Part shown: in pieces, positions 7,708-31,169 of the stretch
How positions within the stretch are numbered: the stretch's first letter is position 1
Layout of the letters: every line of letters starts with the position of its first letter
DNA from: an uncultured Methylomirabilota bacterium
GTDB taxonomy: Bacteria > Methylomirabilota > Methylomirabilia > Methylomirabilales > 2-02-FULL-66-22
DNA: 64,000 nt
Assembly: GCA_963705305.1 (NCBI GenBank)
Contig: OY970067.1
Span: 2,400,001-2,464,000, forward strand
Direction of reading: 5' to 3'
The notes under the pieces: model-generated
Seen by the model: only the letters and a program-made list of their open reading frames with translations
What the model was told of the DNA's origin: nothing
Database searches by the model: none
Translations under genes and position numbers: made by a program

Positions 7708-9544
<1,837 letters not shown>

Positions 9545-11804: not shown

Positions 11805-11812
11805 GGGGATTG

Positions 11813-12686: not shown

Positions 12687-12824
12687 GCGATTTGGCCGGC
12701 TTCCGATGGCAGAGCCCCGTTTACCAGCGTCCCTTTTGTCCGCTCCCGCGCGCGACGGGCAAGGCGACGAATCCCCGCATGCCTGATCGCGGAGACGGAG
12801 CGGGTCGAATCGCCGCTCTTCTTC

Positions 12825-14164: not shown

Positions 14165-15780
14165 CGGTGTCAAGGCGGATCCCTCCTCTGGATGCCGACG
14201 CATCCGGCGTGGTGTCCTGCCTGCCTCCCCCGGGACCGCTCCCGGGTGATCTCTCCCGCCCCAGCGTAGTCGTGGCATCCGGCCTGCTCGCTGCCTGAGC
14301 GGCCCACCCGGCCGTGTCCGAGCTGCGGAGAGCGGGAGCGGCGCGCCAGGGTCCCCCGGCGGTCCCGGGGGGGCCGCCACGTTGCAGGAATCGCGCTGCC
14401 AGCTCCCCGGGGAAACCAGGATCTGCTACCCCTCAGCGGGCCGCCCGGCAGAGCCCGCCGGTCCGCCGCGGGTCGTAGGGGGTCCCGCGCCGCCACACGC
14501 CCCAGACGATCCGGAGGAGCTTCGCCGCCAGCTCCACGGTGGCCGTGAAGCCGGCGGCGCGGTCGCCCTGGCGCTTCGCCTGCAGCACCGCGAGCCGGGC
14601 CCGGCCGCTCGCCGTCCGCGTGACCCCCCGCGCCGCCTGGGACCAGGGCCCAGCGGAGGAGGCCGCGCCCGCCCTTCGAGATCCGCATCTGTCCCGCGTA
14701 CCGCCCGGACTGGACCTGGCAGATGTCGAGGCCGGCGAGCTTCCGGAGCTGGGAGAACTGCGTGAACCAGGCGATGTCGCCGATCTCGGCGAGGAGGGTC
14801 GCGGCCACCGTGGGCCCGACCCCCGGGATGGTCCGGAGGCCGGAAGCCGCTCGGCGACCGGCGTGCACGCCGCCTCGAGCGCGGCGATCCGGGCCTGCAC
14901 GGCCTCGACCTGGGCCCCGAGGTCGGCACAGGCGGTGGCGAGGCCGAGCGGGAGGCGGCCTTTCGCGACCGCCGGGCGGCCCGGGGCCACCCGCTCCCAG
15001 GCCTGGAGGACCATCGGGAGCTCGACCTGCAGGCGATTCGGGAGCGGGGCTCCCGCCGGGGCCAGACTGGGGCGGAGGGTGGTGCGCCAGCGCGCCTTGC
15101 AGGCGGCGAGCTCACTCCGGGCCCGGCGGAGGCACTTCACCAGGGGGCGCAACTCGGCGAGCGGGCCGGCGGGCCGCGAGTAGAAGAGCACCTTCCCCTG
15201 CTCCAGGAGATCGGCGCAGTTCGCGGCGTCCTTCCGGTCGGACTTGTCCCAGGTCCCGTCCTGGGTCCGGCGGTTCCAGTAGGCCACGCTGCTGGAGAGC
15301 AGCAGGACATCCGCCCCGTGCTGCTCCAGGAAGCTCGCCACCGCCTGGTGGTAGGTCCCGGTGGGCTCCAGGCCGCACCCGACCCCCCGGTCCCCGGTGC
15401 TCCGCTGCGCCGACTGGATCCGGGCCCAGAGCGTGGCGAAGCCCCGGGGGGTGTTCGGGATGGTGAGCGTCGGGACCACCACCCGCGTGTGCGCGTGCCG
15501 GAGGTGCCCCACGTGGGCGGCTTGGGCGACGTCGATCCCGACGAGGAGCCGCGATCGATCCGTCCACAGGGTAGCCTTGAGCGCCCGGAAGCGCTTGACA
15601 CGGGTGGCATTGTCACGGAGGGTAGCCATGGGGTTCTTCCTCCTCTGTGCGGGGCGAGTGGATGGCTCTCTGCACACCCCTACCAATAGCGAGGAAGGAC
15701 CCCTTTTTGAAGCTGCCTTTTTCATGAGAAAGGGGTCACACTCAGGGAGTCTGGCCTGCGCTGGCTCATTCATGCAGGTA
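14165..15780 (-). mobile_element. IS110-family element; transposase 15629-14433 with two frameshifts; ends approximate
   Basis: DEDD RuvC-like motifs (VGIDVA, LEPTGTY, KSDRKDA), IPGVGPTVAATLLAEIGD, SKGGRGLLR; ~265-nt 3' non-coding region ending CTTGACA. Confidence 0.85.
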
Positions 15781-16177
15781 ATACTACGTTGCGACTTTAT
15801 TGACATTATTAGATGCCGGGGCATAGAGAAGGGACGATGCCCCTTCGTGTTCCGCGCTCCCACAGACTCCGAGCGGGGATGCGGGCAGGGCCTGCAACAC
15901 GCCGAGGTCGGGGTGGGCGGCGAATTGAAGACGGCGAGGGCGATGAGGCGCGCGCCCTGGGCGCTGGGGCGGGGCTCGAGGCAGGGATGAGCCAGGGTCA
16001 ATTCATAGCTGCGCCGCGTCCCTGATGATACGTTCCGGAGGACTATGGAAGCCCGCGAGACGCCAGGAGTGTCAGGATGCAACGTCTCCTAGGCGACGAA
16101 TGAGGTGACGGCAACGAAGGAGGTAGCGGGAGGATCCACGGGCGGGACCCGGCCCGCCCGTGGGAGTGCGTAGCGCC

Positions 16178-17929
16178 CTAGGTCCGTGCTGCGGCTGGCC
16201 GCAGGGCGCGCGCCCTGCCAAACGCCCGCAGGGCGTCGTACGCCAGGAACAGCGCGAGGATCACCAGCGTGATGCCGATGGCCGCGGCGATCAGGTTCCC
16301 GAAGACGAACGGCGCCTTCAGGTTCGGTGCGAAGGCGGCCTGGAACGAGATCACCGCCGTCACCACCAACGCGGCAATCGTCGTGACATACAGGAATAGA
16401 GCCGGCCAGAGCGTCCACTGGTACGACTTGCCGGTCTGGGCTAGCCAGATGCTGACCAACATCAGCGACAAGCTGGCCAAGAGCTGGTTCGATCCGCCAA
16501 ACAGAATCCAGAGCCGGGACCAGAATCCGGTCCAGAAGAGTACCAGTGTGAGCGCGAGGCCGACGATCGAGCCGAAGTGGACGTTCTTGAAGGCGGGGAC
16601 CGCATCACCGACCAACTCCCCGCCGGCGATGCGCAGGAAGCGCAGGTTCAACTGCATCACCGTCAGTGCCATGATCACCAGGAATGCCGCACCGAATGCG
16701 CCCCCGAAGGCCTTGGGGATGCCGAGCACGTTCAGGTACTCAGCCATCCCGCCGGCAAACACCGCGCCCGGGCCGCCTCCCTTGGTGAGCTTGTCCATGT
16801 ACCCGGCGAAGCCGCCGAACGCCGTCACCGCGAACAGGACGGACACGATGGCCAGCACCGATTCCATGAACATCGCGCCGGCACCGACCGGGAGGGCGTC
16901 CGTCTCCTTCTCGAGCTGGCGCGCGGTCCCGGAACTGGATACCAGGCTGTGCCATCCGGACACCGCACCGCAGGCGACCGTCACGAACAAGATCGGCCAG
17001 AGCGGCGTGTCGAATCCCGGGGCGATAATCCCCTTGGCGGTGAACCCGGTAAACGCGGGGAAGTCCCCGAAGCTGGGCATGCGGAGGAAGATCCCGATAA
17101 CGGACCCCAGGATGCCCAAGAAGACGAGCCAGAATGCGATATAGTTCACCGGCTGGGCGAACCGCCAAATCGGGAGGACAGATCCGAGATAGCAGAATCC
17201 CAGGGCGACGATGCCCCAGAAAAATACGGACCACTTCATCGGCCCATACGGCGTGGCATACAAGACGAAGGAGTCCTTGCCGCCGTTGATCGCATCCACG
17301 ATCGCCCGGAAGGGCCCCGTGGTCCCGAGCCAGACCCCGATGATTCCGATTGCCACGCAGACCACCGTCGTCAGCAACAAGTCCTTCCGCCACTTGTACG
17401 TCATCTGGCCGGCCAGCATACCGGCCAGCGTCAGGATGATGAACCCGAGCGGCACGTTCGGGTTCGAGAAGATGCCCGCCACAATGGCCGAGAACGCGCC
17501 CAGGATCAGCAAGAGGTAGAAGTAAAGGAACGACAGGAGAATCGCCCGCGCCCGCGGCGAGATGAGCTTGTAGCTCAGGCCGCCCATCGTCAGCCCATCG
17601 TTGCGCATGGCCAGGACGGCCGCCGTGTAATCCTGGACCCAGCCGAGAAAGGTGACGCCCAGGACGAGCCAGATCAACGCCGGGGCGTAGCCCCACTGCA
17701 CGGCAACGATCGGACCGACGATCGGCCCCAATGCCGCGATGGACTTGAACTGGTATCCGAACAGGACGCTCGAGCTGGCTGGCATGAAATCGACGCCATC
17801 ATTGTACAGCTTGGCGGGTGTCGCCTTCGCGGGATCCGCGCCGATCACCGAGCGGTCGATGCCGCCCGAGTAGTACTTGTACCCGAGCCAATAAGCCACG
17901 ATCGCGACGAGAACGACGATGCCTCCCAT
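16178..17929 (-). CDS. cstA: Carbon starvation CstA-family transporter
   Basis: TPAKLYNDGVDF, FKSIAALGPIVGP, WPILFVTVACGAVSGWHSLVSSSGT, FGGSNQLLA. Confidence 0.92.
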   Translation of the reverse strand: MGGIVVLVAIVAYWLGYKYYSGGIDRSVIGADPAKATPAKLYNDGVDFMPASSSVLFGYQFKSIAALGPIVGPIVAVQWGYAPALIWLVLGVTFLGWVQDYTAAVLAMRNDGLTMGGLSYKLISPRARAILLSFLYFYLLLILGAFSAIVAGIFSNPNVPLGFIILTLAGMLAGQMTYKWRKDLLLTTVVCVAIGIIGVWLGTTGPFRAIVDAINGGKDSFVLYATPYGPMKWSVFFWGIVALGFCYLGSVLPIWRFAQPVNYIAFWLVFLGILGSVIGIFLRMPSFGDFPAFTGFTAKGIIAPGFDTPLWPILFVTVACGAVSGWHSLVSSSGTARQLEKETDALPVGAGAMFMESVLAIVSVLFAVTAFGGFAGYMDKLTKGGGPGAVFAGGMAEYLNVLGIPKAFGGAFGAAFLVIMALTVMQLNLRFLRIAGGELVGDAVPAFKNVHFGSIVGLALTLVLFWTGFWSRLWILFGGSNQLLASLSLMLVSIWLAQTGKSYQWTLWPALFLYVTTIAALVVTAVISFQAAFAPNLKAPFVFGNLIAAAIGITLVILALFLAYDALRAFGRARALRPAAART

Positions 17930-18190
17930 ACCGGCCTCCTTCCCCGACTGTTGAAAAGGGCGGACGGGACACCGCAACGCACCCTGACGATTCGGCTATC
18001 CGGGCCTCACCTCCCTTCGCGTTCACGGTTACTGCGTTCCGAAGAGGATGGAACCGCCACGCGGTTCGGTGCGCCACGTGTGCGATTTCGAGAGCTATGT
18101 ATCGAGGCTCAAGTCGACAGGCTAGCCGGTGTGGGCCGGGGCCTTACCGGCTAGGATCATGCGGAGTGTGGCAGTTAACGAAACCCATAG

Positions 18191-18219
18191 AGCCTACCGC
18201 CGCCGTTCGCAGAAGTCAA
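18191..18219 (-). promoter_or_regulatory. Putative sigma70 promoter for cstA, implying a ~250-nt leader
   Basis: TTGACT-17nt-TAGGCT on the minus strand. Confidence 0.5.
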
Positions 18220-18610
18220 GCCTCATGTTCGTTAGAAATATTCGTTAGAAAGGGACGTAGGCTCTAAAACAACGTGCTGAATTCCACCCTGCTCAAGGAC
18301 GTGGATCGTGCCTCGCTGGTATTGAATTCCTGCCGATACGAGGCCATAATTTCCTCAGGCAATCGGGACGAAGTAAGAAGGGTACCGGACGCCTTGTGAG
18401 CTGTAAGCGGTTGATTTTCATGAACTGAGATTGCTATTCTTTGCACGGGAGCAACCAGGCAGGTAGGGGTGCGGGCGTCGAGGAAGCGTTTCCGTGCCTC
18501 CGCACATTCAAGTACTTGGAGCCTAAAAATATCCAGTACCCTTTTTGTGACGAAGAGCCACTGGACCGAGCGGAGCGAGGCGCACCGAGCGAAGGCACGG
18601 GAGGTCTCCG

Positions 18611-19447
18611 GTGAGTGTCGATTACTCGCGCGAGAACGTGATGACCCTGGATCCCACGACGTTGAAAGCCATGATCACAGAGCGGGGGCATCACACGGTC
18701 GAAATTCAGCTGTATGAGGCGCTGGCCAAAGGGGGCGCGCTCGGGCCGACCGTCGGAAACGTCGTGCGGGAGCTGCTCGCAGTGTGGAGGGAGCGCGGAC
18801 TCCCCTCGGACAGCGGGGATCTGGCCTGGGTCCGTCGCCTCCTCGCCATGGCGGAAGCCGTCCAGAAGGGCGGGACGCTGGATTTGGCAGAGTTTGCCGG
18901 CACGCCGCTGGATGCGCGGGACCGGCAGGTTGTCGAGCGGCTGCTCTTCGAGCGGCGTTCGGTGCGCTACTGGACCGAGGAGGAGGTGCCCGATTGGATG
19001 ATCGACGAGATCATGCGGGCGGGCCTCTGGGCGGCCCATGGATGCAACCTCAACTCCCTGCGCTTTCTCGTGGTCCGGGAACGGAACGAGCCCGGCCTGT
19101 TTCGCGGCTCCGATATCCCCGGGGGCCCCGTGCACATCGTCGCCTGCCAGGACCGGCGCGTGTACTCGATCCAGCCGGGGTATGTGCAATACCCGGACAT
19201 GCTGGAGAAGAACCGCCTGCTGGACTGCGGGGCGGCGATGGAGAACATGGTGCTCATGGCCCACGCCCTGGGGCTGGGGGGCTGTTGGCTGACGTTCCGG
19301 AACGAGATGCTTGCCCGCATCCGGGAGCGATTCCACCTCCCCGCCCACATCGAGATCGTCACCTATGTCGACGTGGGCTTTCCCAAGCAAACGCCGATGC
19401 CCCCCGGCCGCATTGCCGTCCAGGATGCCGTCCTCGTCAGGCGGTAA
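18611..19447 (+). CDS. Nitroreductase-family protein with N-terminal extension
   Basis: ERRSVRYW, AAMENMVLMAHALGLGGCW. Confidence 0.88.
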   Translation: MSVDYSRENVMTLDPTTLKAMITERGHHTVEIQLYEALAKGGALGPTVGNVVRELLAVWRERGLPSDSGDLAWVRRLLAMAEAVQKGGTLDLAEFAGTPLDARDRQVVERLLFERRSVRYWTEEEVPDWMIDEIMRAGLWAAHGCNLNSLRFLVVRERNEPGLFRGSDIPGGPVHIVACQDRRVYSIQPGYVQYPDMLEKNRLLDCGAAMENMVLMAHALGLGGCWLTFRNEMLARIRERFHLPAHIEIVTYVDVGFPKQTPMPPGRIAVQDAVLVRR

Positions 19448-19800: not shown

Positions 19801-19909
19801 GGTCGGGATCGAACGGGATGACGGCCCGGACGATGTTCTCCTCTCCGACCGGGAGACGGATTCGCCAGGATCCGACCAAACCGTTTCACCCTTGGTTCGA
19901 ACGGGCAAC

Positions 19910-21163
19910 ATGCATACTTCTGCGGTGGAGACCCATCACGCGCTCCTGCGGATGCTTCTGTTTGAACCGCAGAAGGCAAGGGGCTTTCTGTTCGAGCATA
20001 ACGCCGAGACGGCGCCGTCCGTGCCCGTTCCCGACTGGTCCCGTCTTGGCGAAATGGCGGAACAGGAGGGGGTTTCCGCAGTTCTGTTCCATAACATCAA
20101 GAAGCATAACCTGCAACATCTCGTCCCGCCGGAATGCTACAGGGACTTGTCCAACCAGTTCCATGTCAACCTGAAGCGCAACCTGCTGGTCATCGGCGCA
20201 TTGCGGCAGGTGCTGGCATCCTTTCAGGAGGCCGGCATTCACTGCATCATCCTGAAGGGCATCGCCCTTGCAGAGCGCGTGTACCCGAATATTGCCATGC
20301 GGGGGATGTCAAACGTCGATATCCTGGTCAGGAAAGCGGATCTCTTCAACGCCGACGAACGTCTGTGCTCCTTAGGATACACTTCGCAAGACAGTACCGC
20401 GACACAGGCGATCCTTAACCCCGCCGGGTATCTCGCCAGCCTGGAATACCGCAAACATGAACCGGCCCCCTTAAGCCTTCACGTTCACTGGCATCCAGTC
20501 AATACGTCGATCCCGGCGGCCATCTTCGCCGAGCGTATCGATATCGACCGGCTCTTGGAACGCGCCACGGCGAGCGTCGTGGCCGACAGCCAGGCCTGGA
20601 TTCTGAGCCCGGAGCATCTGATCATCTACCTTTGCGAACACGCCCTGAGGATCGGCCATTCCTTTGACCGCCTGATTCTCGTCTGCGATATCTTTTACGC
20701 CATAAAGGCCTTTGAAGATACCATCGACTGGGACTTTCTTGTCGAGGAGAGCCGTCGCTTCAACCTCTCCCGGTTCGTGTATCACGGGCTGACCATCGTG
20801 AAATATCATACCTCGTTGAATATCCCGGAAGCGTGCATGGCAAAACTGCGACCGCCCGATATCTCATGGGGGGAAAGGTATTTTCTCACACTCCAGTTCA
20901 ACAACCGGCGAATCAGGGGGAGCAGTTACTTCATCTACCTGACGATGCACAGGGGCTTTTTCGCCAAGATCGCATTCATCGCCCGGACCGTCTTTCCGCC
21001 GGTCCGGATCCTCCGGCAGCGACAGTACCGGAAAGACGTTGCATTCTCAAAATCACTGTATCTCCAGCGAGCCAGGGAGATCATTTCGCACATTTTCCTG
21101 TGGTCCTTTAGCAGGGCGAGCGCTGCTCACGGCAAGAGAAAGATGACGAAGGCCCTTCAGTGA
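19910..21163 (+). CDS. Uncharacterised nucleotidyltransferase family protein (NTP_transf_5-like)
   Basis: ILKGIALAERVYPNIAMRGMSNVDILV, LHVHWH, LILVCDI, IDW. Confidence 0.85.
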   Translation: MHTSAVETHHALLRMLLFEPQKARGFLFEHNAETAPSVPVPDWSRLGEMAEQEGVSAVLFHNIKKHNLQHLVPPECYRDLSNQFHVNLKRNLLVIGALRQVLASFQEAGIHCIILKGIALAERVYPNIAMRGMSNVDILVRKADLFNADERLCSLGYTSQDSTATQAILNPAGYLASLEYRKHEPAPLSLHVHWHPVNTSIPAAIFAERIDIDRLLERATASVVADSQAWILSPEHLIIYLCEHALRIGHSFDRLILVCDIFYAIKAFEDTIDWDFLVEESRRFNLSRFVYHGLTIVKYHTSLNIPEACMAKLRPPDISWGERYFLTLQFNNRRIRGSSYFIYLTMHRGFFAKIAFIARTVFPPVRILRQRQYRKDVAFSKSLYLQRAREIISHIFLWSFSRASAAHGKRKMTKALQ

Positions 21164-22794
21164 CAACCAAGAAAGAACCATCCGGGCTGAATCGAGGGGA
21201 CTGCGGGACTGCTCTGCAGACGGAAGAAGCCACCTTCTTCGAGGAGTGGCTGGCCGCAGGCCAGCCCCCGGAGCAGCTCTCGATCAGCGCCGTCTGCAAC
21301 GCCCGCTGCCTCTTCTGCTCGAACCGGATGAATCCTTTCCCGGTCACGCAAAATGTGTTTCGGGACATTGAAGACGTCAAGCTGCAGCTCTCGTTGAGCT
21401 CCGCCAACCATCAGGGCGATATTCACATGAGCGATTCCCTGCCGGGGCGGATTTCGGAAGGGGAGGCCTTTCTGCACCCCCGGTTTTTTGACATTCTCAC
21501 CCTCGTCCGGGAAAAATTCCTGGCCAATTGCCTGCACTTCACGACCAACGCTTCCCTGCTCGACGAGCGTTTCGTGCAAAAACTCGAACCCTTCCGTCCG
21601 GTCGAAATCAACATTTCCCTGCACTCCACGCAGCCGAAGCTGTGGACCCGGATTTTCCAATCTTCGGAGAGACGAGCCCGGACTGCCTTGAACTCTTTTG
21701 ATCTTCTGAAGAAGCATCACATCGACTTTACGGGAACCATCGTCCCTTTGCCCCGAATTTGCGGGTGGAACGACCTCGAAAACACCTTTGCTTTCCTGGT
21801 GGGCGCGGGGGCCAAATCCATCATTCTGTGGTGGCCTGGGTTCTCGGAAAAAACGCCTGCCGGGTTAAAAAGGGAAATCGAATGCCCCTGGGATGAATTC
21901 GGGGATTTCGTGAAGCACATGCAGGAAAAGTTTCCACGATTTCCGGTGATCCCGCAGCCGAACCCGCTGGAGCCCCGGAGGTTGCCGATCAAGCGGATCA
22001 TGAATTTTACGCTTCAGGGAAACCTGAAGACCTTCGGGGGGGCTTTTCGGCACGTGCTGTGGCTCGTTTCCGAGGCAGCCTATCCGGAAATGTCCAAACT
22101 GGTGGCGGAATTTGCGCAGGATGTCCCCAATGAACACCATGTCTTCCCGGTAAGAAACAGATCTTATGGCGGCAACATCCAGGTCAGCGGGCTGCTGATG
22201 GTCTCAGACTTTCTGGCTGCGGGAACGGAGGCACTGCAGAGGTGGCCAGCCGTCGATCTCGTGCTTGTTCCCAAAATGGCGTTTGACGCCTTCTTTCGCG
22301 ATCTGCAGAAGACGCCTGCCTACAAGATTCCGGAAGGGCTGGGAAGAACTACGTGGTTGGTCTTTGAGAAGGGCTCGTTCCTTTCTCTCAAGGGTCGCGG
22401 GTTCGTCACGCCGGAGAATGATCCCCAAAAGACCCTTGAGAAGTTGCTGAAGGTCATTGACGAATCGATACAGGCGGACAAGCTTGATGTCCTTTCGGCG
22501 ATGGTTGCCGCCTTTCCGATTCCGACCTCGGAAGGCATTCTGAAAGAAGGGGAATTCGGGGACTTTTTGAAGGGGATCAAGAAGGGCCAGTCTCCGACCG
22601 GAGCGTTCGAGAAGCGCGTATTTGAAAAGCTTGACGACCATCGCGTTGTTTGCATGGAAGAGCGGCCGACCGCAGATCCGTCCGAAGCGTCTGCTCGCTG
22701 GGTATTTTTCAGGAGAATAGGAAAGGACTGGAAGCTGGAAATGATTTTCTTTTCGCGCATTTCTGTTGACAGTGGATCAGATGGTTCGCTATGA
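21160..22794 (+). CDS. Radical SAM protein with DUF512-like domain
   Basis: CNARCLFC, GEAFLHP, TTNASLL, VRNRSYGGNIQVSGLLMVSDF; start overlaps the upstream stop. Confidence 0.8.
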   Translation: MTTKKEPSGLNRGDCGTALQTEEATFFEEWLAAGQPPEQLSISAVCNARCLFCSNRMNPFPVTQNVFRDIEDVKLQLSLSSANHQGDIHMSDSLPGRISEGEAFLHPRFFDILTLVREKFLANCLHFTTNASLLDERFVQKLEPFRPVEINISLHSTQPKLWTRIFQSSERRARTALNSFDLLKKHHIDFTGTIVPLPRICGWNDLENTFAFLVGAGAKSIILWWPGFSEKTPAGLKREIECPWDEFGDFVKHMQEKFPRFPVIPQPNPLEPRRLPIKRIMNFTLQGNLKTFGGAFRHVLWLVSEAAYPEMSKLVAEFAQDVPNEHHVFPVRNRSYGGNIQVSGLLMVSDFLAAGTEALQRWPAVDLVLVPKMAFDAFFRDLQKTPAYKIPEGLGRTTWLVFEKGSFLSLKGRGFVTPENDPQKTLEKLLKVIDESIQADKLDVLSAMVAAFPIPTSEGILKEGEFGDFLKGIKKGQSPTGAFEKRVFEKLDDHRVVCMEERPTADPSEASARWVFFRRIGKDWKLEMIFFSRISVDSGSDGSL

Positions 22795-22854
22795 AGGGTG
22801 TATCTTTATTGAACCTATTGAAAAGGATGCCGTAAGCGCAATAGGGGGAGGAAC

Positions 22855-23049
22855 ATGAAAGACGACAGGAAAGAGTGGGTCCCGCCCCAATTGATCGTCC
22901 TGGGCAGGGGAACGCCGGAGGAGAATGTCCTGGGCGGCTGCAAGACCTCAACGCTGACGGGTTCCGGCGCCACGAAGACCAGCTGCAAGAAAAAAACGGG
23001 TTCTACTTGCGCCTCAACCCGGTGCAGCACCATTTCCAAAACGTCTTAG
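22855..23049 (+). CDS. Putative RiPP precursor peptide (64 aa)
   Basis: Strong RBS GGGGGAGG; WxPPxLxxLG leader; C-terminal half with 4 Cys and 18 Ser/Thr; directly upstream of rSAM/SPASM genes and PqqD. Confidence 0.85.
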   Translation: MKDDRKEWVPPQLIVLGRGTPEENVLGGCKTSTLTGSGATKTSCKKKTGSTCASTRCSTISKTS

Positions 23050-23059
23050 GTTTTCGTTC

Positions 23060-25033
23060 TTGGATAGACAAGCGAACCTCAGTAAAAGCGCGAGACGCAT
23101 CCCACGGCTGCCCCTCGAAGGCAACATCGATCTGACCTACCGGTGTAACTGCAACTGCCGCCACTGCTGGCTGTGGCTGCCGGCAAACGACAAAGTCGAG
23201 AAACGGGAGCTTTCATTCGACGACATCGATAGAATTGTGGGTGAAGCCCGGGCGATGGGCTGCCGCAGGTGGCTGATTTCCGGCGGCGAACCCATGCTGC
23301 GTCCCGACTTCGTCGATATTTTCGATATGATCACGCGCCGCTCGCTTTCCTATTCGCTGAATACGAACGGCACGCTGATCACGCCGACCATCGCCCGCCT
23401 GCTGCGAAGAAAAGGCGCGAAGATGGTCGCTCTCTACGGGGCGACCGCGGAAATCCACGATCACATTACGCGGACCCCCGGATCCTTTGCGGCGGTCCTG
23501 CGGGGTTTTGCCTACCTCCGGGAGGCCAGGGCGGGTTTCATCGTCCAGCTCATCCCCATGCGCGACAATTATCATGAGTTCGACGCCATGATGCGGCTCG
23601 CCCGCTCCCTGAGCCCCGTGTACCGCGTGGGCGCACCGTGGCTGTACCTTTCCGCCTGCCGCAGCGCCGTCCGCAACCGCGAAATTTCACGGCAGAGGTT
23701 GGACCCGGCGGATACGATCCGCGTCGAACCGCCCGATGCCGTCGATGACGATGGGCCGATGACCCAGATCGAGGGGGACGGCAAGCCGCCGTCCCGCCTT
23801 CAGCCCGGCGCAGACGGCCGGCTTTTCGAGGCCTGCATCGAAGGATGCCGGGATTTCCACATCGATCCCTACGGCGGTATGACCTTCTGCCCCTTCATCA
23901 AAGACCCTGCGCTGCGCTACAATCTGCGGAAGGGAAGTTTTCGGGAGGCATGGGATGCGTTCATCCCTTCGCTTGCCGAGAAGGTACACGCCGATCCGGA
24001 GTATGAGGAAAACTGCGGCCGCTGCGAAAAACGCGTGGATTGCCGCTGGTGCCCCGCCTATGCCTACCTGGAAGAAGGCCGATACTCGGCGAAGGTCCCG
24101 TACCTGTGCGCTCTTGCGGATGGAACGCGATCTTACAAGGAAAACTGGCTGCGGCATCACCGCCGGTATTTCCGAATTGCCGGCGTAACGATCCGGGTGG
24201 ATTCCGATCTTCCGTTCACGGAAAAGACCTTTGACCCGAAGTTCAAGAAGTTCGAAGCGGAGGGCCCGTCGGAAGATACGATTTCCTTGCGCCATCATTT
24301 TTCGGTCCCGAAATTTGACCGGGACGACACGGGCCAGGAGATGTACCGCCGGGCGCCCTGGGCGATCTACCGCAAGGGCCGATCCTGGATCTATCTGGGC
24401 ATCGGGCCCGGGCGGCGCGATCGATCTATCCACTGCGCGGCCGCATTTAATGAGGGGCATACGCGGGGGCGGATCTACAACCACGGCGAAGCCCGTTTTC
24501 GCCATGGGAACCTGCACGCCCTGACGCTGTTCCCCTCCGATCAGATCCTGCTGGCGCGGGCGCTTGCCGACCGCCAGGCCTGCTTTGTCCACGCCGCGGG
24601 GGTGGACATCGGCGGGAAGGGGCTCCTGCTGGTGGGGCATTCCGGAGCCGGGAAAACCACGGCGGCGAGAATGCTGCGGACGCATGGGGAAGTGCTCTGC
24701 GACGACCGGATCGTCGTGCGCCGCTGGCCGGAGGGGCTCCGCATCCACGGGACCTGGAGCCACGGCGAGCTGCCGGACGTGTCCGCCGGCTCCGCCCCGC
24801 TTTCCGCCATCCTGTTCCTCGAAAAGGCGGATGGAAACCGCCTCGTGCCGGTGACGAGGACCATCGAGATCGCGCGGCTTCTTGCCCAGCATGTGGTGAG
24901 GCCTCTGGTGACGGCCGACTGGTGGGAAAAGATCCTGGCCCTGGTAGACACCGTGGCGCGGGAGGCTCCGGCATACCGACTCGAGTTCGACAAGAGCGGC
25001 CGGATGATTGAGGATGTCGCGAAAATACTGTGA
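23060..25033 (+). CDS. Radical SAM/SPASM protein fused to a C-terminal HPr-kinase-like P-loop domain
   Basis: CNCNCRHC, SGGEP, SPASM CGRC..DCRWCP..YLC; C-terminal HAAGV, GHSGAGKTT, LCDD, HGTW. Confidence 0.9.
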   Translation: MDRQANLSKSARRIPRLPLEGNIDLTYRCNCNCRHCWLWLPANDKVEKRELSFDDIDRIVGEARAMGCRRWLISGGEPMLRPDFVDIFDMITRRSLSYSLNTNGTLITPTIARLLRRKGAKMVALYGATAEIHDHITRTPGSFAAVLRGFAYLREARAGFIVQLIPMRDNYHEFDAMMRLARSLSPVYRVGAPWLYLSACRSAVRNREISRQRLDPADTIRVEPPDAVDDDGPMTQIEGDGKPPSRLQPGADGRLFEACIEGCRDFHIDPYGGMTFCPFIKDPALRYNLRKGSFREAWDAFIPSLAEKVHADPEYEENCGRCEKRVDCRWCPAYAYLEEGRYSAKVPYLCALADGTRSYKENWLRHHRRYFRIAGVTIRVDSDLPFTEKTFDPKFKKFEAEGPSEDTISLRHHFSVPKFDRDDTGQEMYRRAPWAIYRKGRSWIYLGIGPGRRDRSIHCAAAFNEGHTRGRIYNHGEARFRHGNLHALTLFPSDQILLARALADRQACFVHAAGVDIGGKGLLLVGHSGAGKTTAARMLRTHGEVLCDDRIVVRRWPEGLRIHGTWSHGELPDVSAGSAPLSAILFLEKADGNRLVPVTRTIEIARLLAQHVVRPLVTADWWEKILALVDTVAREAPAYRLEFDKSGRMIEDVAKIL

Positions 25034-25060
25034 AACGTCCCCGCCGATCGGGATCACGGC

Positions 25061-26245
25061 ATGACGGAACGCACGTATGTTGATAAGAGGAATATCGGTC
25101 ATGCCCCCCACTGGGGAGGAGAGGGGCCTCCCGCGGTTCATCTCGACATCGAGCTAACGGAGCGCTGCAACAACACCTGCATCCACTGCTGCATCAACAA
25201 ACCGGCTGGGGACAAGCGGAGCCTGGCCCGCGAGCTTGAGACCTCCGCCTGGAAGGACATCCTCCGCCAGGCCGCCGAGCTGGGGGTGATGACGGTCCGT
25301 TTCACCGGCGGCGAGCCGCTGCTCCGGCAGGATTTTTCCGACCTGTACCTGTTTGCGCGCCGCCTCGGGCTGAAGGTGATGCTGTTCACCAACGCCCGGC
25401 TCATCGGGCCGCACATCGCCGCACTGCTGGCCGATGTTCCCCCCCTCGAAGATATCGAGATTTCCGTATACGGCATGAGCAGGGAGTCCTATGAAGCCGT
25501 CACGGGCGTTGACGGTTCTTACGCCGAGTTCCGCAATGGCGTGCAGTGTCTGCTCGACAGAAAGATCCCTTTCGCTGTAAAAGGAGCGCTGCTGCCGCCC
25601 AATAAACATGAAATGGCGGAATTCGCTGCCTGGGCGGCCGCCAACACTCGGATGGATATCCCTCCCACGTACGCCATGTTCTTTGACCTGCGGGGGCGGC
25701 GGGATTCCGCCGCCAAAGACAGCAGGATCAGGCGCCTGCGCGTCTCTCCCGAAGAGGGCCTGCAGATCCTCACCCGGCATCCGGACCGGTACCTGAAGGA
25801 GATGTCCGAATTCTTTGAAAGGTATTCATCGCCTCCCGGTGACCGGCTGTTCACCTGTGGAATCGGACCGGGTTGCGTGGATGCCTACGGTGTTTTCCAG
25901 CCCTGCCTGTCGCTCCGACACCCCGATTTGACTTCTGATTTAAAAAGAGGCGCCCTGAAAGAAGCCCTGGCGTCCGGAGTCACCCGCCTTCGAGAAATGA
26001 AGGCCACGAATCCGCTTTATCTCAAACGATGCGCACGCTGTTTCCTGAGGGGCTTCTGTGAGCAATGCCCGGCCAAGTCATGGTCTGAACACGGCACGCT
26101 GGACAGGCCGGTCGAATACTGCTGCCGGGTGGCCCATGCGCAGGCCCGGTTTCTGGGGCTCGTCATGGAGAAAGAACGGGCATGGGAGGTCCGCGACAGC
26201 GCAGAAAGAATACAGAACCTCAGAAGGAGAGTGGCGGCGACATGA
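25061..26245 (+). CDS. Radical SAM/SPASM maturase
   Basis: CNNTCIHC, TGGEP, CGIG..QPC, CARCFLRGFCEQCP..YCC. Confidence 0.93.
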   Translation: MTERTYVDKRNIGHAPHWGGEGPPAVHLDIELTERCNNTCIHCCINKPAGDKRSLARELETSAWKDILRQAAELGVMTVRFTGGEPLLRQDFSDLYLFARRLGLKVMLFTNARLIGPHIAALLADVPPLEDIEISVYGMSRESYEAVTGVDGSYAEFRNGVQCLLDRKIPFAVKGALLPPNKHEMAEFAAWAAANTRMDIPPTYAMFFDLRGRRDSAAKDSRIRRLRVSPEEGLQILTRHPDRYLKEMSEFFERYSSPPGDRLFTCGIGPGCVDAYGVFQPCLSLRHPDLTSDLKRGALKEALASGVTRLREMKATNPLYLKRCARCFLRGFCEQCPAKSWSEHGTLDRPVEYCCRVAHAQARFLGLVMEKERAWEVRDSAERIQNLRRRVAAT

Positions 26246-26550
26246 AGAAGATACGGATGGACATGGTTTTTTCCCACTCCAGCGATGTGGTGTCGAGGGA
26301 AATTGACGGCGCTTTGATTATCGTCCCCCTCACATCCGGCGTGGGCGATATGGAAGACGACCTGTTTTCCATGAATGAATCCGGTACGGAAATCTGGAGC
26401 ATGCTGGACGGCAAAAAGACCTTGCAAGAGATCGTCGAGGCCCTGGCTCGGCAATACCATGCCGAGCCGGGAGAGATCGAACGGGACGTCGCTGGAATCG
26501 TCGAGGAATTGCTCAAAAGGAGAATGCTTGTCGAAGCGACCGCCGCGTGA
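26242..26550 (+). CDS. PqqD-family protein (RiPP recognition element)
   Basis: VVSREIDG, FSMNESGTEIWSMLDG, IERDV..IVEELLKRRML; ATGA overlap with the upstream gene. Confidence 0.92.
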   Translation: MKKIRMDMVFSHSSDVVSREIDGALIIVPLTSGVGDMEDDLFSMNESGTEIWSMLDGKKTLQEIVEALARQYHAEPGEIERDVAGIVEELLKRRMLVEATAA

Positions 26551-27058
26551 ATACCTGCATCCCGCGATGCGGAAAGTCGGCCTGCCCCTTTCCGGAGAGG
26601 CCCTGATTGCGCTCATGCAGACTGTGCATGGGAAAGGATTCCCCTTCCGATTCAGCGCCGGCGGATACAGCATGACGCCCTTCATCAGGGATGGCGACGT
26701 GATCACCGTCTCTTCCCTGGCTTCGCATGCGCCGCGTCGGGGGGACGTCGTGGCGTTCGTCCACCCGGAAACACAACGGCTTTGCCTGCACCGGGTGCTG
26801 TCCGTCCATGGAGACAGCTTCTTCATCCAGGGCGACAATATGCCTGAAAGACCGGACGGTGTGATTCCGCGAGAGGCGATTCTCGGGCGGGTCACGGGTA
26901 TCGAGCGCGCCGGCAGGAGAGTCAGACTGGGGCTCGGCCCCGAACGCCTGCTGGTCGCCATTCTGAGCCGATGCGGAGGCATGGCCCTGACCCGGCGGTA
27001 TGCCGGCTGGCTCCATGCCTATTTCAGCAGGAGCCACGGATCGTGCGAAAAGCGTTAG
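26528..27058 (+). CDS. S24/S26-family (signal peptidase-like) peptidase; start uncertain
   Basis: GYSMTPFIRDGD, GDVVAF, LHRV, QGDN, ILGRV. Confidence 0.85.
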   Translation: MSKRPPREYLHPAMRKVGLPLSGEALIALMQTVHGKGFPFRFSAGGYSMTPFIRDGDVITVSSLASHAPRRGDVVAFVHPETQRLCLHRVLSVHGDSFFIQGDNMPERPDGVIPREAILGRVTGIERAGRRVRLGLGPERLLVAILSRCGGMALTRRYAGWLHAYFSRSHGSCEKR

Positions 27059-28188
27059 TATCCTATACGAGCCTGCCCGATTTTGCGCTCTGGGATGCAC
27101 TCGGGGACAGGCGGATTCCGCTGTCCTTCGATCTCGAGGTGACCGCCCGCTGCAACAACAATTGCCGTCATTGCTACATCAACCTCCCGCCGGACGATAG
27201 CGCGGCTCTGCGTGATGAACTGACGCTGGAGGAAATCAGCCGCATTGCGGACCAGGCTGTCTCCCTCGGGTCCCTCTGGTGCCTGATAACGGGCGGCGAA
27301 CCTCTTCTCCGAGCAGATTTTCCTGATCTGTACCGGCTGCTGAAGAGCAAGGGCCTGTTGGTTTCCCTTTTTACCAATGCCTGCCTGGTCACGGAGAAGC
27401 ACATACAACTGTTCAGGAGCTATCCCCCGCGGGATATCGAGGTCACCGTGTATGGCGCCACGGGCGAGACGTATGAACGGGTGACCCGTAGTTCCGGCTC
27501 CTATGCGGCGTTCCGCCGCGGCCTGACCCTGCTGCTCGAGGGGGGGGTCAAGGTGAATCTGAAGACCATGGTGCTGCGTTCCAATAAGCATGAACTGCCG
27601 GCTATCGCCCGTTTCTGCCGAGAAAGAACGAAAGGCCCTTTTCGCTTCGATCCCATGCTGCACCTGCGGTTTGACGGAAACGAGCGAAGAAACGATGAAA
27701 TACGCGCAGAGAGGCTGACGGCCGAGGAGATCATCGGGATTGAACAGGCGGATCCGGAGCGGTTGGCGGCCATGGAAAAGAGATGCGGCATGCTGGAGAC
27801 AGCCGCCGCCGAGGCAGGACCGGATTATCGTCTTTTTCAGTGCCAGGCGGGAGGAGAGAGTTTCGCCGTGAGCTGCAACGGTCTCTTCCGTCTCTGCTCG
27901 TCTCTGTGGCAGCCTGACTGTCTCTACGATCTGTGCCAGGGCACGCTGGCCGAAGCCTGGTTCGATTTCACCCCGCGGATACGCGCAATCACCTCGGACA
28001 ACACTGAATATCTCGAGACCTGCCGCCTGTGTCCCCTCATGAATCTGTGCCAATGGTGCCCCGCCCATGCCCATCTGGAGTGCGGCCGCATGGATGAACG
28101 GTGTGGATACTTCTGCCGCGTGACACAGGCACGGGCGGAAGCGTTCGGGAAGCGGGAAAAGGCGGCATCCACATCCGAAGAAAGATGA
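27043..28188 (+). CDS. Radical SAM/SPASM maturase
   Basis: CNNNCRHC, TGGEP, CQAG..RLC, CRLCPLMNLCQWCP..YFC. Confidence 0.93.
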   Translation: MRKALVSYTSLPDFALWDALGDRRIPLSFDLEVTARCNNNCRHCYINLPPDDSAALRDELTLEEISRIADQAVSLGSLWCLITGGEPLLRADFPDLYRLLKSKGLLVSLFTNACLVTEKHIQLFRSYPPRDIEVTVYGATGETYERVTRSSGSYAAFRRGLTLLLEGGVKVNLKTMVLRSNKHELPAIARFCRERTKGPFRFDPMLHLRFDGNERRNDEIRAERLTAEEIIGIEQADPERLAAMEKRCGMLETAAAEAGPDYRLFQCQAGGESFAVSCNGLFRLCSSLWQPDCLYDLCQGTLAEAWFDFTPRIRAITSDNTEYLETCRLCPLMNLCQWCPAHAHLECGRMDERCGYFCRVTQARAEAFGKREKAASTSEER

Positions 28189-28208
28189 AGGGCTTATCCT
28201 GCTCCCAG

Positions 28209-28385
28209 TGAAGTCGACGCCACCCTGACGCTCTGGGGGGATCCCTGGCGCGGAGGTGGCTACGGTCGACAACAGTCCCGAGCCCGTGGAACGCTGGATT
28301 GCCAAGGGCCGAGCGGCGCTCGTGCTCGCCATCCCGAAGGGGGAGACGACAATCGCGGAGGCCGCCCGCCGGCACGGCCTCAGGG
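28209..28385 (+). pseudogene. IS3-like element left end with truncated OrfA (DUF1153-like HTH)
   Basis: TG-start end; [39 protein letters not shown]. Confidence 0.65.
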
Positions 28386-31013
28386 CCGGTCGAGGCGGCC
28401 GACCTGGACAGGCACGCGCGGAAGATCGCCGTCATGGGGGAGGGGCAGGAAATCGGGGCCCCACACCGCCAGCTCCAGCTCGTACCGCCCGGGGGCGGGA
28501 GGCGCGGGGATCACCCAGGCCACGGGAACGGCTTGGCCGGGAAACACGTCGTCCGGGAGGGGGACAAGGTCGGTCGAGACGGGGCGCCCCGCCAGGAGCC
28601 AGCGCGTCCGCAGGATGAAGCATCCGAAGTAGGACCGGGGCGTGGCCAGCCACAGGGCGCTCCGGCCCGCTCCCCAGATCGGCCACTCCGCCCCCAGCTC
28701 GGGCAGGTCCGCCGAGGCATACCAGAGGGCGAGATCGTGAAGCGTGGCGAGCCGTCGGAACGGCATCGCGTCGGCGGTGCCGCGGGCGGTGGGCCGCCAC
28801 GGGACGGCTCCGACATTTCGGACCAGCGCCGACGCCTGGATCGGCTGGCTGACGCCGACCGCCAGCTCCGGGGGCCCGAGCCAGGTCAGCGCCGCGCGGG
28901 GCTCTCCGCTCGAGGACGCTTCCGGGGAGACGAGGACGGGCCGGACCAGGCGGAAGACGTCTCCCCCTATCTCCAGACGGTAACTCCCCGGGGACCGGGG
29001 GGTTTCCAGGGGGAGGGCGGTCAGGTACTGACCCCCCGCCGGCAGGAGCGTCGGGAGGTAGGTCGCGACACGCTCCTCGACCCGGGGGCCGCCGTCCGCT
29101 GGAATCCAGGTCACCCGGACCGGTCGGATCCCGAGGGGGCCGGGGTTGACCCACGGGGCTCCGGATCGTTCCAGGAGGAGGAGCCGGAGCCGGAGCGGGC
29201 GCCCGGCGGGAAGGCCCGCAGGCAGCGATGCCTCCGCATCCAGGCCGGCTGCCCGCCGCGAGGCGGGCGGGATGCGATACAGCTGGATGTCCGGCAAGGC
29301 AAGGATCCGCTCCAAACCCGGGATCGGCGGCGCGCCCTGGCGCCAGGCGGCGCGCGCCGCCTCGGGCAGCGCATCCAGGTGCACCGCCAGTGTCCGAACG
29401 CCCAGGGCGCCCAGCGCCTCCACGACGCGGGGGGACAGCCCTTCGCCGTTCACCAGGGCGGCGATCTCGTAGTAGGAGCCGGGCCGGAATCCGGAATAGC
29501 CGTTGACCAAGGGCGCCCAGTCGCGCGTACTCTGCAGCGCGTAGGTGGCCTCGGTCAGCGGGTCGTAGATGGAAAAGGGGATCTCCAGGACGGCGCCCTC
29601 CGCGGCTCGCTCGCGCAGGATTCGGGTGACCGCAGCGTCGCCGAGGGACACGGGCCGGAGGGGGACGGGGACATGGAGGGCCTCCAGCGTCATGGCCGCC
29701 AGGGCGAGGCCTCCCAGGATGGCGCCGGGCTGCGGCAGCGCCGGCCGTCGCTCCCGCAGGAAGTCGGCGAGGCGGGCGAGACCGGCGGCCGCGAAGAGGG
29801 CCAGGGGGACGAGGGCGAGGAGCGCGAAGCGGGCGGGGACGCGAATGCCGCCGAGCCCCGGCAGGCCAAGGAACAGACCGAGATAGGGGAGCGGCCACTG
29901 GGCCGGGGCGTCGCCCCAGATCAGGATGGGGCCGAGCGCCAGGACCAGGGCCGTCGCGCCCACCAGGGCCAGCGCAGGCGCTGCGGCGGGCCAGGCCGCC
30001 CCCCCGCGCGTGGCGACCCGCCGCCGGGACGCCAGCCCCCAGGCGGCCAGGCCCCAGGGCAGGAGGCCGAAGAAGAGGGCGCTCTCCCAGGGAGCATCCC
30101 GGCGCCGGAACTTGGCCGTGGCGGCCCCGTAGAGCCAGTTGGCCTGGTCGGCGGCAAGAAAGCTGGCCGGCTCGGCGCTGTAGCGCACGAGGTCGCCGAG
30201 GCCACGCTGATAGCCCCACTGGGCTTGCGAGTGGGCATAGGGGAGCGCCACGGGGAGAAAGAGGAGGGCCCCGACGAGCAGGGCGACGGCGAGGTGCGAC
30301 AGGGCCTGCAGGCGAGGCCATCGCCCCCGCTCCTGCCAGGTGCGCACCGCCAGGTAGGGGACGAGGAGAAGCCCTGCCATGATGCCCAGGTAGGCAGAGC
30401 TGAGGAACTGGCACCAGAGCAGACCGCTGGCGGCCACAGCTAGGGTCCACCGCGGCCGCCGGAGCCACGCCTCCACGGCCAGGAAGACCAGGGGAGTCCA
30501 CCAGGCGGACGACAGCTGCAGGTGAACCAGGTGCGGGAAGCGGGGGAGCGCGAACGCGTACACGAACCCCGCCACCAGGGCGGGCCCCCGGCGTCCGAGG
30601 AGGGCCCAGGCCAGCCAGGCCATGCAGAGTCCATTGAGGACGAAGGCGCCCAGCAGGGTCAGATTGCAGGCGAGGATGGGATTCCCCGTCAGAAAGTAGA
30701 GCGGGGCGAAGAGCGGCTGGTCGCCCAGCAGGCTGTCCGAGAAGGCCAGCGCATCGCGGGCCGGGTAGAATATGTTGGCCTGAAAGAGCCGCAGGGGGGC
30801 ATGAGCTAGTGCATGGGCCCCCCAGCTCAGGATGTAGGCGGTGAGAGGGGGGTCGGAGGCGCTGGCGAGGTTTTCGTGGGTGATGAGGTGATCAGTGAGA
30901 TGCGCCGCCAGCGGCCAGGTCAGGCCCACGGCGGTGATCGCGTAGAGGGCGAGAGCGCCAAGGAACAGGCGGGCTGTCGGGCGGCCTGCGGGCGAAGGCC
31001 CGGGCTGAGACAT
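28380..31013 (-). CDS. Large polytopic membrane protein, YfhO/GT-C glycosyltransferase-like, with C-terminal Ig-like (NBR1-type) domain
   Basis: Many TM segments, ANIFYP, RVPARF, PLVNGYSGF, VRNVGAVPW, PPAPGRYEL. Confidence 0.7.
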   Translation of the reverse strand: MSQPGPSPAGRPTARLFLGALALYAITAVGLTWPLAAHLTDHLITHENLASASDPPLTAYILSWGAHALAHAPLRLFQANIFYPARDALAFSDSLLGDQPLFAPLYFLTGNPILACNLTLLGAFVLNGLCMAWLAWALLGRRGPALVAGFVYAFALPRFPHLVHLQLSSAWWTPLVFLAVEAWLRRPRWTLAVAASGLLWCQFLSSAYLGIMAGLLLVPYLAVRTWQERGRWPRLQALSHLAVALLVGALLFLPVALPYAHSQAQWGYQRGLGDLVRYSAEPASFLAADQANWLYGAATAKFRRRDAPWESALFFGLLPWGLAAWGLASRRRVATRGGAAWPAAAPALALVGATALVLALGPILIWGDAPAQWPLPYLGLFLGLPGLGGIRVPARFALLALVPLALFAAAGLARLADFLRERRPALPQPGAILGGLALAAMTLEALHVPVPLRPVSLGDAAVTRILRERAAEGAVLEIPFSIYDPLTEATYALQSTRDWAPLVNGYSGFRPGSYYEIAALVNGEGLSPRVVEALGALGVRTLAVHLDALPEAARAAWRQGAPPIPGLERILALPDIQLYRIPPASRRAAGLDAEASLPAGLPAGRPLRLRLLLLERSGAPWVNPGPLGIRPVRVTWIPADGGPRVEERVATYLPTLLPAGGQYLTALPLETPRSPGSYRLEIGGDVFRLVRPVLVSPEASSSGEPRAALTWLGPPELAVGVSQPIQASALVRNVGAVPWRPTARGTADAMPFRRLATLHDLALWYASADLPELGAEWPIWGAGRSALWLATPRSYFGCFILRTRWLLAGRPVSTDLVPLPDDVFPGQAVPVAWVIPAPPAPGRYELELAVWGPDFLPLPHDGDLPRVPVQVGRLDRP

Positions 31014-31169
31014 GCTCAGGCGTTCCCGCACGGCATCAGCCCGGACATGTCACGTACACCGCGGAGGCGCCAAAGGCGCGGAGACAACGACAGCCTCCTC
31101 GAGCTTGCGGAGGGGGGCCTTGCATCCTCGTGTTCCGTGCTCCCCCATCCGGGGACGGGCAAACGCACG

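Follow-up and report, generated by a model that had tools for sequence, protein, structure and literature searches.

A predicted RiPP cluster on a low-GC island

The window examined here is a 64,000-nt stretch of contig OY970067.1 (GCA_963705305.1; positions 2,400,001 to 2,464,000 of the forward strand) from an uncultured Methylomirabilota bacterium; unless another locus is named, all positions given below are window positions. Between 19896 and 28194, this window carries an 8.3-kb island of low GC content that contains a complete, eight-gene cluster, which we interpret as a pathway for the maturation of a ribosomally synthesized and posttranslationally modified peptide (RiPP). All eight open reading frames (ORFs) are intact and lie on the plus strand. 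An earlier note on this DNA had described eight co-oriented and closely packed genes, and both the coordinates and the Pfam and NCBIfam domains agree with the gene order that it gave: nucleotidyltransferase (NTase), radical S-adenosylmethionine (SAM) enzyme with a DUF512 domain, 64-aa ORF, radical SAM enzyme fused to a kinase, radical SAM enzyme, PqqD-like protein, S24/S26 peptidase, and radical SAM enzyme.

The first gene encodes a 417-aa NTP_transf_5 protein similar to LppN and PsmN (19910 to 21163; PF14907, E = 8.7e-50, 170 bits). It is followed by the gene for a 544-aa protein (21160 to 22794) that combines radical SAM and DUF512 domains (PF04055 and PF04459, both above their cut-offs) with a C-terminal NTF2-like domain. 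A purine-rich, Shine-Dalgarno-like run, AGGGGGAGG, at 22843 to 22851 ends 3 nt before the ATG (22855) of the gene for the 64-aa precursor peptide (22855 to 23049), in which the leader occupies approximately 22855 to 22938 and the core approximately 22939 to 23046. This gene lies 10 nt upstream of the fusion gene (23060 to 25033; PF04055, 72.9 bits), whose product joins a radical SAM-SPASM enzyme (residues 1 to approximately 360) to a kinase half (residues 367 to 657) with the fold of HprK and phosphoenolpyruvate carboxykinase (PEPCK). A second radical SAM-SPASM paralogue of 394 aa (25061 to 26245; PF04055, 66.8 bits) precedes a 102-aa PqqD-type RiPP recognition element (RRE) (26242 to 26550; PF05402, 63.2 bits versus a cut-off of 23.4), a soluble S26 peptidase of the archaeal/ER type that resembles SpI and LppS (26528 to 27058; PF10502 and PF00717 above their cut-offs, at 26.6 and 25.2 bits), and a third radical SAM-SPASM paralogue of 381 aa (27043 to 28188; PF04055, 72.5 bits). 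The CX3CX2C motif is found in all four radical SAM proteins and the SPASM core CX2CX5CX2C in three of them. None of the eight proteins reached an NCBIfam equivalog cut-off.

Two of the junctions are 4-nt overlaps (21160/21163 and 26242/26245) and two are longer overlaps of 23 nt and 16 nt; the remaining genes are separated by 10 to 60 nt. The start of the S26 peptidase gene is more likely to be the TTG at 26528 than the alternative ATG at 26567, because a GGAG lies 5 nt upstream of the TTG and because this start is common to the orthologue in G013, a second species of the same genus. For the last radical SAM gene, the reading frame is open from an ATG at 26971, but the GTG at 27043 is the more likely start, because a GGAG lies 9 nt before it and on comparison with the orthologous cluster of G013.

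The limits of the island were apparent from that species. G013 carries the same eight genes, with 75 to 89% protein identity, in a different genomic context, and when its locus (L011) was compared with the whole window by blastn, the match was confined to 19896 to 28194 (83 to 87% identity) and the flanks were unrelated. These limits, obtained independently, agree with the 19910 to 28188 given in the earlier note. GC content was 0.57 to 0.62 across 20 to 28 kb, compared with 0.63 to 0.73 in the adjoining 2-kb bins. A search of 251 genomes from this phylum for the DUF512 gene gave homologues in only two, G000 and G013. Among the matches listed from a large protein collection, those nearest to the fusion and to the DUF512 protein carry labels such as Deltaproteobacteria, Thermodesulfobacteriota, Desulfobacteraceae, and Syntrophales. 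No convincing terminal or flanking repeats were seen at the island ends. Composition, alignment limits, and distribution indicate that the eight genes form a discrete, horizontally acquired island. None of the conclusions drawn here depends on the unpublished genome G028.

The precursor peptide

The 28-aa leader, KEWVPPQLIVLGRGTPEENVLGG, contains the motif W8..P11.L13 and ends in ..VLGG, after which the core opens with CKTS. The core, CKTSTLTGSGATKTSCKKKTGSTCASTRCSTISKTS, has 36 residues, including 4 Cys, 10 Thr, 8 Ser, and 7 Lys or Arg; it has no acidic residue and ends in Ser. The precursor is 84% identical in G013, and no second copy was found in the genome, where the only other match had an E value of 8.4.

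A profile built from 12 precursors of related loci retrieved 176 small proteins, 120 of which were listed and compared. All 176 were unnamed or annotated as hypothetical, bar one with an evidently misassigned source label, and none had a Pfam domain. Across the 120 listed relatives the leader, KKW..PQLIVLGRGTPEENVL.., is near-invariant and follows the pattern W..P.L.VL...PEE.VL..CK. The core opened with CK in 117, exactly four Cys followed the leader in 116, and a C-terminal Ser was present in 113. In 102 close relatives, the four Cys were the most invariant core positions and had fixed spacings (C-x14-C in 94 and C-x4-C in 85), and 91 ended in the 7-residue tail C-S-x-I-S-x-T-S. Positions occupied by Thr, Ser, and Lys were also highly conserved, with an overall core composition of 17.5% Lys, 16% Ser, and 16% Thr, whereas Asp and Glu together made up 0.2%. 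The loop between the second and third Cys was hypervariable in both length and sequence. A near-invariant leader joined to a variable loop is the classic RiPP pattern, and we conclude from this pattern of conservation that the 64-aa ORF is a genuine precursor. The earlier note had read the locus as a RiPP cluster that has an RRE and a leader of the lasso type; the [W/Y]xxPxL motif, the relatives of the precursor, and the PF05402 match uphold this call.

Prediction of a complex between PqqD and the precursor gave a score of 0.43, whereas the best control reached 0.00; on the tool's own scale, this counts as weak support. In the calibration of this score, the mark was reached by 116 solved complexes out of 157 and by 2 mismatched pairs out of 215, but only 18 of the 157 solved complexes reached it at ≤0.60. 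Runs agreed in at least 95% of contacts, with a pLDDT (predicted local distance difference test) value of approximately 49 for the partner, and pairs of this kind may pass by their likeness to solved RRE-leader complexes.

Radical SAM-SPASM enzymes and the fused kinase

The CX3CX2C motif and the SPASM core begin at residues 29 and 319 of the fusion protein, residues 36 and 324 of the second paralogue, and residues 37 and 327 of the third. In a maximum-likelihood tree across loci, each paralogue formed its own clade, with support of 100/100 for the fusion, 100/100 for the second paralogue, and 97/98 for the third. The triplication is therefore old and the three enzymes are nonredundant. The fusion of enzyme and kinase is full length in all 120 of the best homologues listed (57 to 100% identity).

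In the kinase half, the P-loop GHSGAGKTT and residues K532, D548, D549, and R550 were invariant in 26 fused sequences. An AlphaFold2 (AF2) model of this half (pLDDT, 89.3) matched the folds of PEPCK and of HprK/P. The best NCBIfam match was ScmC (TIGR04249; E = 2.8e-11), a component of the SynChlorMet cassette that the earlier note had put forward as a relevant comparison. Membership of that cassette, with manufacture of its product, would account for the similar repertoire of the island (PqqD-like and HPr-kinase-like proteins alongside SPASM radical SAM enzymes), since ScmD, ScmE, and ScmF also appeared among the matches of the PqqD and SPASM proteins. However, the scores fell far below the curated cut-offs: 43.3 bits versus 125 for ScmC, which was the sole ScmC match in a whole-genome scan (40.8 bits); 30.5 bits versus 100 for ScmD (TIGR04248); and at best 83.6 and 90.0 bits versus 400 for ScmE and ScmF (TIGR04250 and TIGR04251). 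The shortfall was three- to fivefold for all four cut-offs, and SynChlorMet membership was rejected. Furthermore, the island has three SPASM paralogues rather than two, a kinase fused to one of them, and an additional S26 peptidase, NTase, and DUF512 enzyme. We regard this assignment as very improbable, and since we know of no described SynChlorMet product, it would explain little.

The DUF512 enzyme, nucleotidyltransferase, and S26 peptidase

Four radical SAM enzymes had been counted in the earlier note, and all four are present; the fourth, however, is not a paralogue of the putative cross-linking enzymes and is instead of the Mmp10/DUF512 type. To our knowledge, hardly any substrates of DUF512 enzymes are known. 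The DUF512 domain of this protein scored 32.0 bits against a PF04459 cut-off of 25, and its CX3CX2C motif begins at residue 46. When an AF2 model of the protein (pLDDT, 76.6) was searched with Foldseek, the best match was the cobalamin-dependent methylase Mmp10 (7qbs; E = 1.9e-10, TMt 0.57 over 370 columns), and the DUF512 structures 9cg1 and 9cg2 also matched (E = 1.9e-10 to 1.9e-9 across the best matches). A protein-atlas search pointed in the same direction and is taken as a lead only. Because the fold resembles that of Mmp10 and DUF512 enzymes, and because cobalamin binding by the DUF512 domain has been demonstrated (PMC11659888), the fourth enzyme is probably a cobalamin-dependent methylase. 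It shares with the Mmp10/DUF512 enzymes (7qbs, 9cg1, and 9cg2; PMC11659888) a radical SAM core followed by DUF512; it differs from them in its low identity (14 to 20%), in the location of its gene within a RiPP cluster, and in an additional NTF2-like domain of approximately 120 aa, and both cobalamin binding and methyl transfer are predictions for the window protein. This C-terminal part (residues approximately 420 to 535; 22420 to 22794) resembles the NTF2-like protein AtzH (TMt 0.66, 126 columns) and, on the strength of the model, may be a peptide-binding add-on.

The DUF512 gene appears to accompany the fusion in the close subfamily to which the window belongs and is absent from the distant loci compared below. 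As a proxy for colocation, 13 apparent shared contigs were counted among the best 53 matches of each list. Most of the distant family members lack both the NTase and the DUF512 gene, and on this distribution, the two enzymes are accessory.

The S26 protein matched sigpep_I_arch (TIGR02228) best among NCBIfam models (43.1 bits versus a cut-off of 51.85). In an alignment of 11 sequences that included the peptidase of L044, a bona fide linear polyphosphorylated peptide (LPP) cluster from Peribacillus kribbensis, Ser35 and Asp97 were conserved in 10 of the 11 and His75 and Asp90 were invariant. The protein has no membrane anchor, and its gene adjoins that of PqqD. Its proposed role as the leader peptidase has an experimental precedent in LppS (PMC13381572), and by analogy with LppS and homology to the L044 cluster, we consider that it probably is the leader peptidase, as the earlier note had supposed.

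Distribution of the family

In the related loci that were compared, a conserved core set recurs, consisting of the precursor, the radical SAM-SPASM::kinase fusion, two further SPASM paralogues, PqqD, and a soluble S26 peptidase with Ser, His, and Asp. These loci bear the labels Leptolinea, Methanoregula, Desulfobulbaceae, Actinomycetes, Omnitrophota, and Desulfobacterales, and two come from unclassified bacteria. Each of these fusion-bearing contigs encodes one to four precursors of the W..P type. By this gene content, the cluster represents a widespread, uncharacterized family that spans several bacterial phyla and a methanogen. A simpler relative, in which a single SPASM enzyme and an unfused kinase accompany PqqD, often together with an NTase, occurs in the same genus as the window and in Acidobacteriota. 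Those of its precursors that were examined (n = 16) have a Y..P leader; all 16 end in Ser, and 15 have three Cys. The number of Cys residues thus tracks the cluster type, with four where there are three SPASM enzymes and three where there is one.

Related loci differ in their accessory genes. The Leptolinea locus (L023) has an ABC exporter, an NTP_transf_5 gene, a Wzz/tyrosine-kinase-like gene, and a UDP-glucose dehydrogenase gene after the cluster (12752 to 19376 of that locus), surroundings that echo the polysaccharide-locus setting reported for LPP; a NusG paralogue (5466 to 6038) precedes the cluster. After the cluster in the Desulfobulbaceae locus (L028; 13134 to 17827) come genes for an ABC transporter and for a second HprK-like kinase that stands alone, together with an opposite-strand Asn-synthase/GATase gene, which may be a neighbouring lasso-type gene or an ordinary AsnB gene. 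Four tandem precursors are encoded in the Methanoregula locus (L024; 7714 to 8628, 12375 to 13897, and 14349 to 15344), where the S24-like peptidase is joined to a GNAT acetyltransferase and a further, small radical SAM gene lies upstream. Between two W..P precursors in the Omnitrophota locus (L022; 2128 to 5302) lies a gene for a classical, 735-aa radical SAM enzyme with a B12-binding domain, which, judged by its domains, is a second and independent route to a cobalamin-type radical SAM enzyme within the family. Giant ORFs of approximately 2,570 to 2,880 aa with an S26-like stretch lie downstream of the single-enzyme clusters of Acidobacteriota (L032, 11074 to 18774; L034, 11120 to 19174; L035, 11101 to 19086; L036, 11401 to 20046).

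Genes next to the island

A nitroreductase-family gene (18611 to 19447) with an N-terminal extension of approximately 90 aa lies just upstream of the island and outside it; a comparison with the 20 other genomes of the genus at E ≤ 1e-40 gave no match. Downstream, 28380 to 31031 on the minus strand encodes a predicted membrane protein of 883 aa that had no Pfam match at 1e-4 and a 55% identical homologue in only 2 of the same 20 genomes; long plus-strand ORFs that overlap it look like high-GC artefacts. Because the upstream gene was matchless and the downstream gene so rare, a search of these 20 genomes for an empty site demonstrated no uninterrupted site.

In the G013 island (L011 on G013:C10), the fusion gene (6402 to 8721) and the third SPASM gene (10730 to 11876) are each broken into two ORFs, and the NTase gene (3282 to 4721) has an in-frame, low-complexity insertion of approximately 68 aa. 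The breaks may represent real decay or an assembly error in this 70-contig genome.

DISCUSSION

In this study, the LPP pathway (LppA/K/B/S/D/N), which was described in Bacillota (Popov et al., Nat Commun 2026, PMC13381572), and not SynChlorMet, was by homology the closest characterized system to the island. The kinase, S26 peptidase, and NTase of the window matched their counterparts in L044 with E values of 8e-10, 8e-6, and 8e-13, respectively. In the LPP pathway, the HprK-like kinase LppK polyphosphorylates Ser3 of the core, and LppS, an archaeal-type, SpI-like leader peptidase with S29, H68, and D93, cleaves only when the RRE presents the leader (PMC13381572). The two systems have in common an RRE, a kinase resembling HprK, an SpI-like peptidase, an NTP transferase, a [Y/W]xxP leader, and the absence of a cyclase. 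The island contains a Ser/His/Asp peptidase of the SpI-like type beside a discrete RRE, as well as an HprK-like kinase and an NTP_transf_5 protein, although the kinase is a fused domain and the NTase has Asn in its D.D motif. The two systems also differ in important respects. The LPP motif YxxPxVLxHQxIxFETxxS does not occur in the window leader, and only [Y/W]xxPx[L/V] is common to both; the precursor of L044 is YQRPLVLTHQPIVFETAQS. The window has a short core with four Cys and a terminal Ser. The LPP product is linear, with phosphorylation as its primary modification and no further enzymes that act on the core, whereas the island adds four radical SAM enzymes, one of them fused to the kinase. 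The LPP core set has an MsbA-like exporter that has no equivalent in the island, although ABC exporters are present in L023 and L028. In addition, LPP occurs in Bacillota, whereas the family described here occurs in many phyla and in archaea. The main text of the LPP paper has no mention of radical SAM; 'Radical_SAM' is one of 834 column heads in its supplementary domain matrix (PMC13381572). No description of this gene combination or of SynChlorMet was found in the full-text literature, a search in which subscription journals lay mostly outside coverage; CrpC of Methanococcus (PMC13692751) belongs to a different system.

The phosphorylated lasso peptides provide a second comparison. Like the systems of PadeK, ThcoK, PsmK, and PsmN (PMC9266682), the island has the leader motif, a PqqD-type RRE, a kinase resembling HprK, an NTP_transf_5 protein, and a precursor with a strongly conserved C-terminal Ser. 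In paeninodin-type clusters, the kinase phosphorylates the conserved C-terminal Ser of the precursor, and PsmN adds a hexose to the phosphate (PMC9266682). The lasso-type leader motif could thus be taken to mean that the island is a paeninodin-type cluster whose cyclase and B2 protease are encoded elsewhere. However, there was no match to the B2 cysteine protease family PF13471 in the 98.9%-complete genome, and none of the 6 genomic matches to the cyclase family PF00733 fell within the window, the nearest lying approximately 157 kb before it. The earlier note had recorded the cyclase as lacking. Furthermore, the related loci have neither gene in their 9-kb flanks, bar the opposite-strand Asn-synthase gene of L028, and the core opens with Cys-Lys and, with so few Asp and Glu residues in the family, offers no conserved acidic residue to close a ring. 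The probability of a displaced lasso pathway is close to nil; in the island, the radical SAM enzymes and the S26 peptidase may take the places of the cyclase and the B2 protease, as the earlier note had proposed together with a multiply cross-linked, possibly phosphorylated or nucleotidylated product, and the three SPASM paralogues, the HprK-like kinase, the NTP_transf_5 protein, and the S26 protein listed in that note were each recognized by domain hits, by motifs, or, for the kinase, by fold.

Instead, we think it probable, although well short of certain, that the island encodes a full RiPP maturation pathway that joins the accessory set of LPP and paeninodin clusters to radical SAM chemistry. 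In the pathway that we envision, PqqD would bind the W..P.L motif of the leader and present the precursor to the enzymes. The three SPASM paralogues would each install one or more cross-links on the four invariant Cys residues of the cationic core, which is rich in Thr, Ser, and Lys; the cross-links would most likely be sulfur-to-carbon thioethers. The fused kinase half would phosphorylate a Ser; the precedent of paeninodin-type lasso peptides makes the near-universal C-terminal Ser the most likely site, with Ser4 of the core an alternative by analogy with Ser3 of LPP. A cobalamin-dependent C-methyl group would be added by the DUF512/Mmp10-like enzyme, and the NTP_transf_5 protein may extend the phosphate, although it is possibly impaired in this genome. 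Finally, the S26 peptidase would remove the leader in an RRE-dependent manner, with the cut probably falling immediately ahead of the opening CK of the core; this position would place Leu at -3, as Phe-3 in LPP.

SPASM enzymes are chemically diverse, and the three paralogues might carry out other radical chemistry, such as C-C or C-N/O cross-linking, epimerization, or oxidation of Cys or Ser, with the Cys residues serving as disulfides or metal ligands. In common with the sactipeptide and ranthipeptide maturases AlbA, SkfB, and StsB, they combine a radical SAM core with a C-terminal SPASM Cys motif, have a precursor that contains Cys, and would depend on an RRE; unlike in those systems, the RRE is a separate protein and three paralogues would act on one four-Cys peptide. 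Moreover, the scores fell far below the equivalog cut-offs (84 bits versus 625 for StsB, 51.3 versus 850 for AlbA, and 43.5 versus 300 for SkfB), and therefore, the models do not fix the reaction type. The best NCBIfam matches include heme and PQQ enzymes. Sequence searches of the PDB with the fusion, the third radical SAM enzyme, and the DUF512 protein returned only remote radical SAM matches, the best being the decarboxylase BlsE (E = 1e-9), and such matches do not indicate reaction type. The conservation of Thr, Ser, and Lys in the core could likewise reflect chemistry at residues other than Cys. Conversely, the four Cys are the most invariant positions, their spacings are fixed, and their number follows the type of cluster. 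A chemistry other than thioether formation is a possibility that we take seriously but consider the less probable outcome.

Further observations, like the missed maturase models, weigh against the proposed pathway. Every chemical step is predicted, and so are the order of events, the sites of phosphorylation and cleavage, and the biological function. The Hpr_kinase_C match of the fusion lay below the Pfam cut-off (24.5 bits versus 33.3); the kinase call was kept because of the P-loop GHSGAGKTT, the NCBIfam matches to ScmC and HprK_rel_B, and the PEPCK/HprK-P fold. Position -1, ahead of the first core Cys, varies among G, A, S, N, Q, F, H, D, and V, and therefore, the predicted cleavage site is uncertain. 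The four Methanoregula precursors lack the terminal Ser, even though their fused kinase retains its motifs; in all, this Ser is missing from 7 of the 120 listed precursor relatives. The LPP phosphosite lies near the N terminus of the core rather than its C terminus (PMC13381572). In the LPP study, LppN had no detectable activity (PMC13381572). There is no exporter among the eight island genes, in contrast to the Leptolinea and Desulfobulbaceae loci, which have an ABC transporter. At the island ends, neither a sigma-70-like promoter (1 promoter-like site versus 2.3 expected) nor a convincing terminator (12 terminator-like sites versus 8.9 expected) was found. Among the sequencing runs listed as matching 21100 to 25100, none was of RNA, and two metagenomes contained fractions of only 0.20 and 0.12 of the sampled words. 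Lastly, Asn135 (AAC, 20312 to 20314) of the NTase occupies the position of the first Asp in the metal-binding D.D motif. This Asp is present in 9 of 10 aligned homologues, the G013 orthologue included, and because of the substitution, the NTase may be impaired in this genome.

The substitution, together with the lack of an exporter or regulator in the island and the split genes of the orthologous island in G013, could mean that the cluster is a decaying passenger that yields no mature product in this genome. However, all eight ORFs are intact, the genes show translational coupling and Shine-Dalgarno-like sequences, and the catalytic Cys, P-loop, and triad motifs have been kept; in addition, the breaks in G013 may be errors of a fragmented assembly. 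We consider decay unlikely.

A more speculative extension, which we regard as rather improbable, is that the family constitutes a new RiPP class. In this class, the three long-diverged SPASM enzymes would form a defined polycyclic thioether scaffold on the strongly cationic four-Cys peptide, and the kinase fused to the first of these cyclases would place a (poly)phosphate handle on the terminal Ser, elaborated by the NTP transferase, B12-type methylases, and GNAT, and the peptide would possibly be coupled to cell-envelope glycans rather than released as a free antibiotic.

In conclusion, the family ties the machinery of LPP and the phosphorylated lasso peptides (RRE, HprK-like kinase, SpI-like peptidase, and NTP transferase) to radical SAM cross-linking, and it shows that this accessory module has a much greater age and a much wider distribution than its assignment to Bacillota implied, extending to several bacterial phyla and to methanogens. 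It also provides a candidate substrate, with a leader motif, four fixed Cys residues, and a terminal Ser, for three SPASM enzymes, a kinase fusion, and a DUF512 enzyme. Because a hypervariable loop is carried on a fixed scaffold, and because the cluster has moved in an island-like manner, these results suggest a role for the peptide in microbial conflict or recognition.

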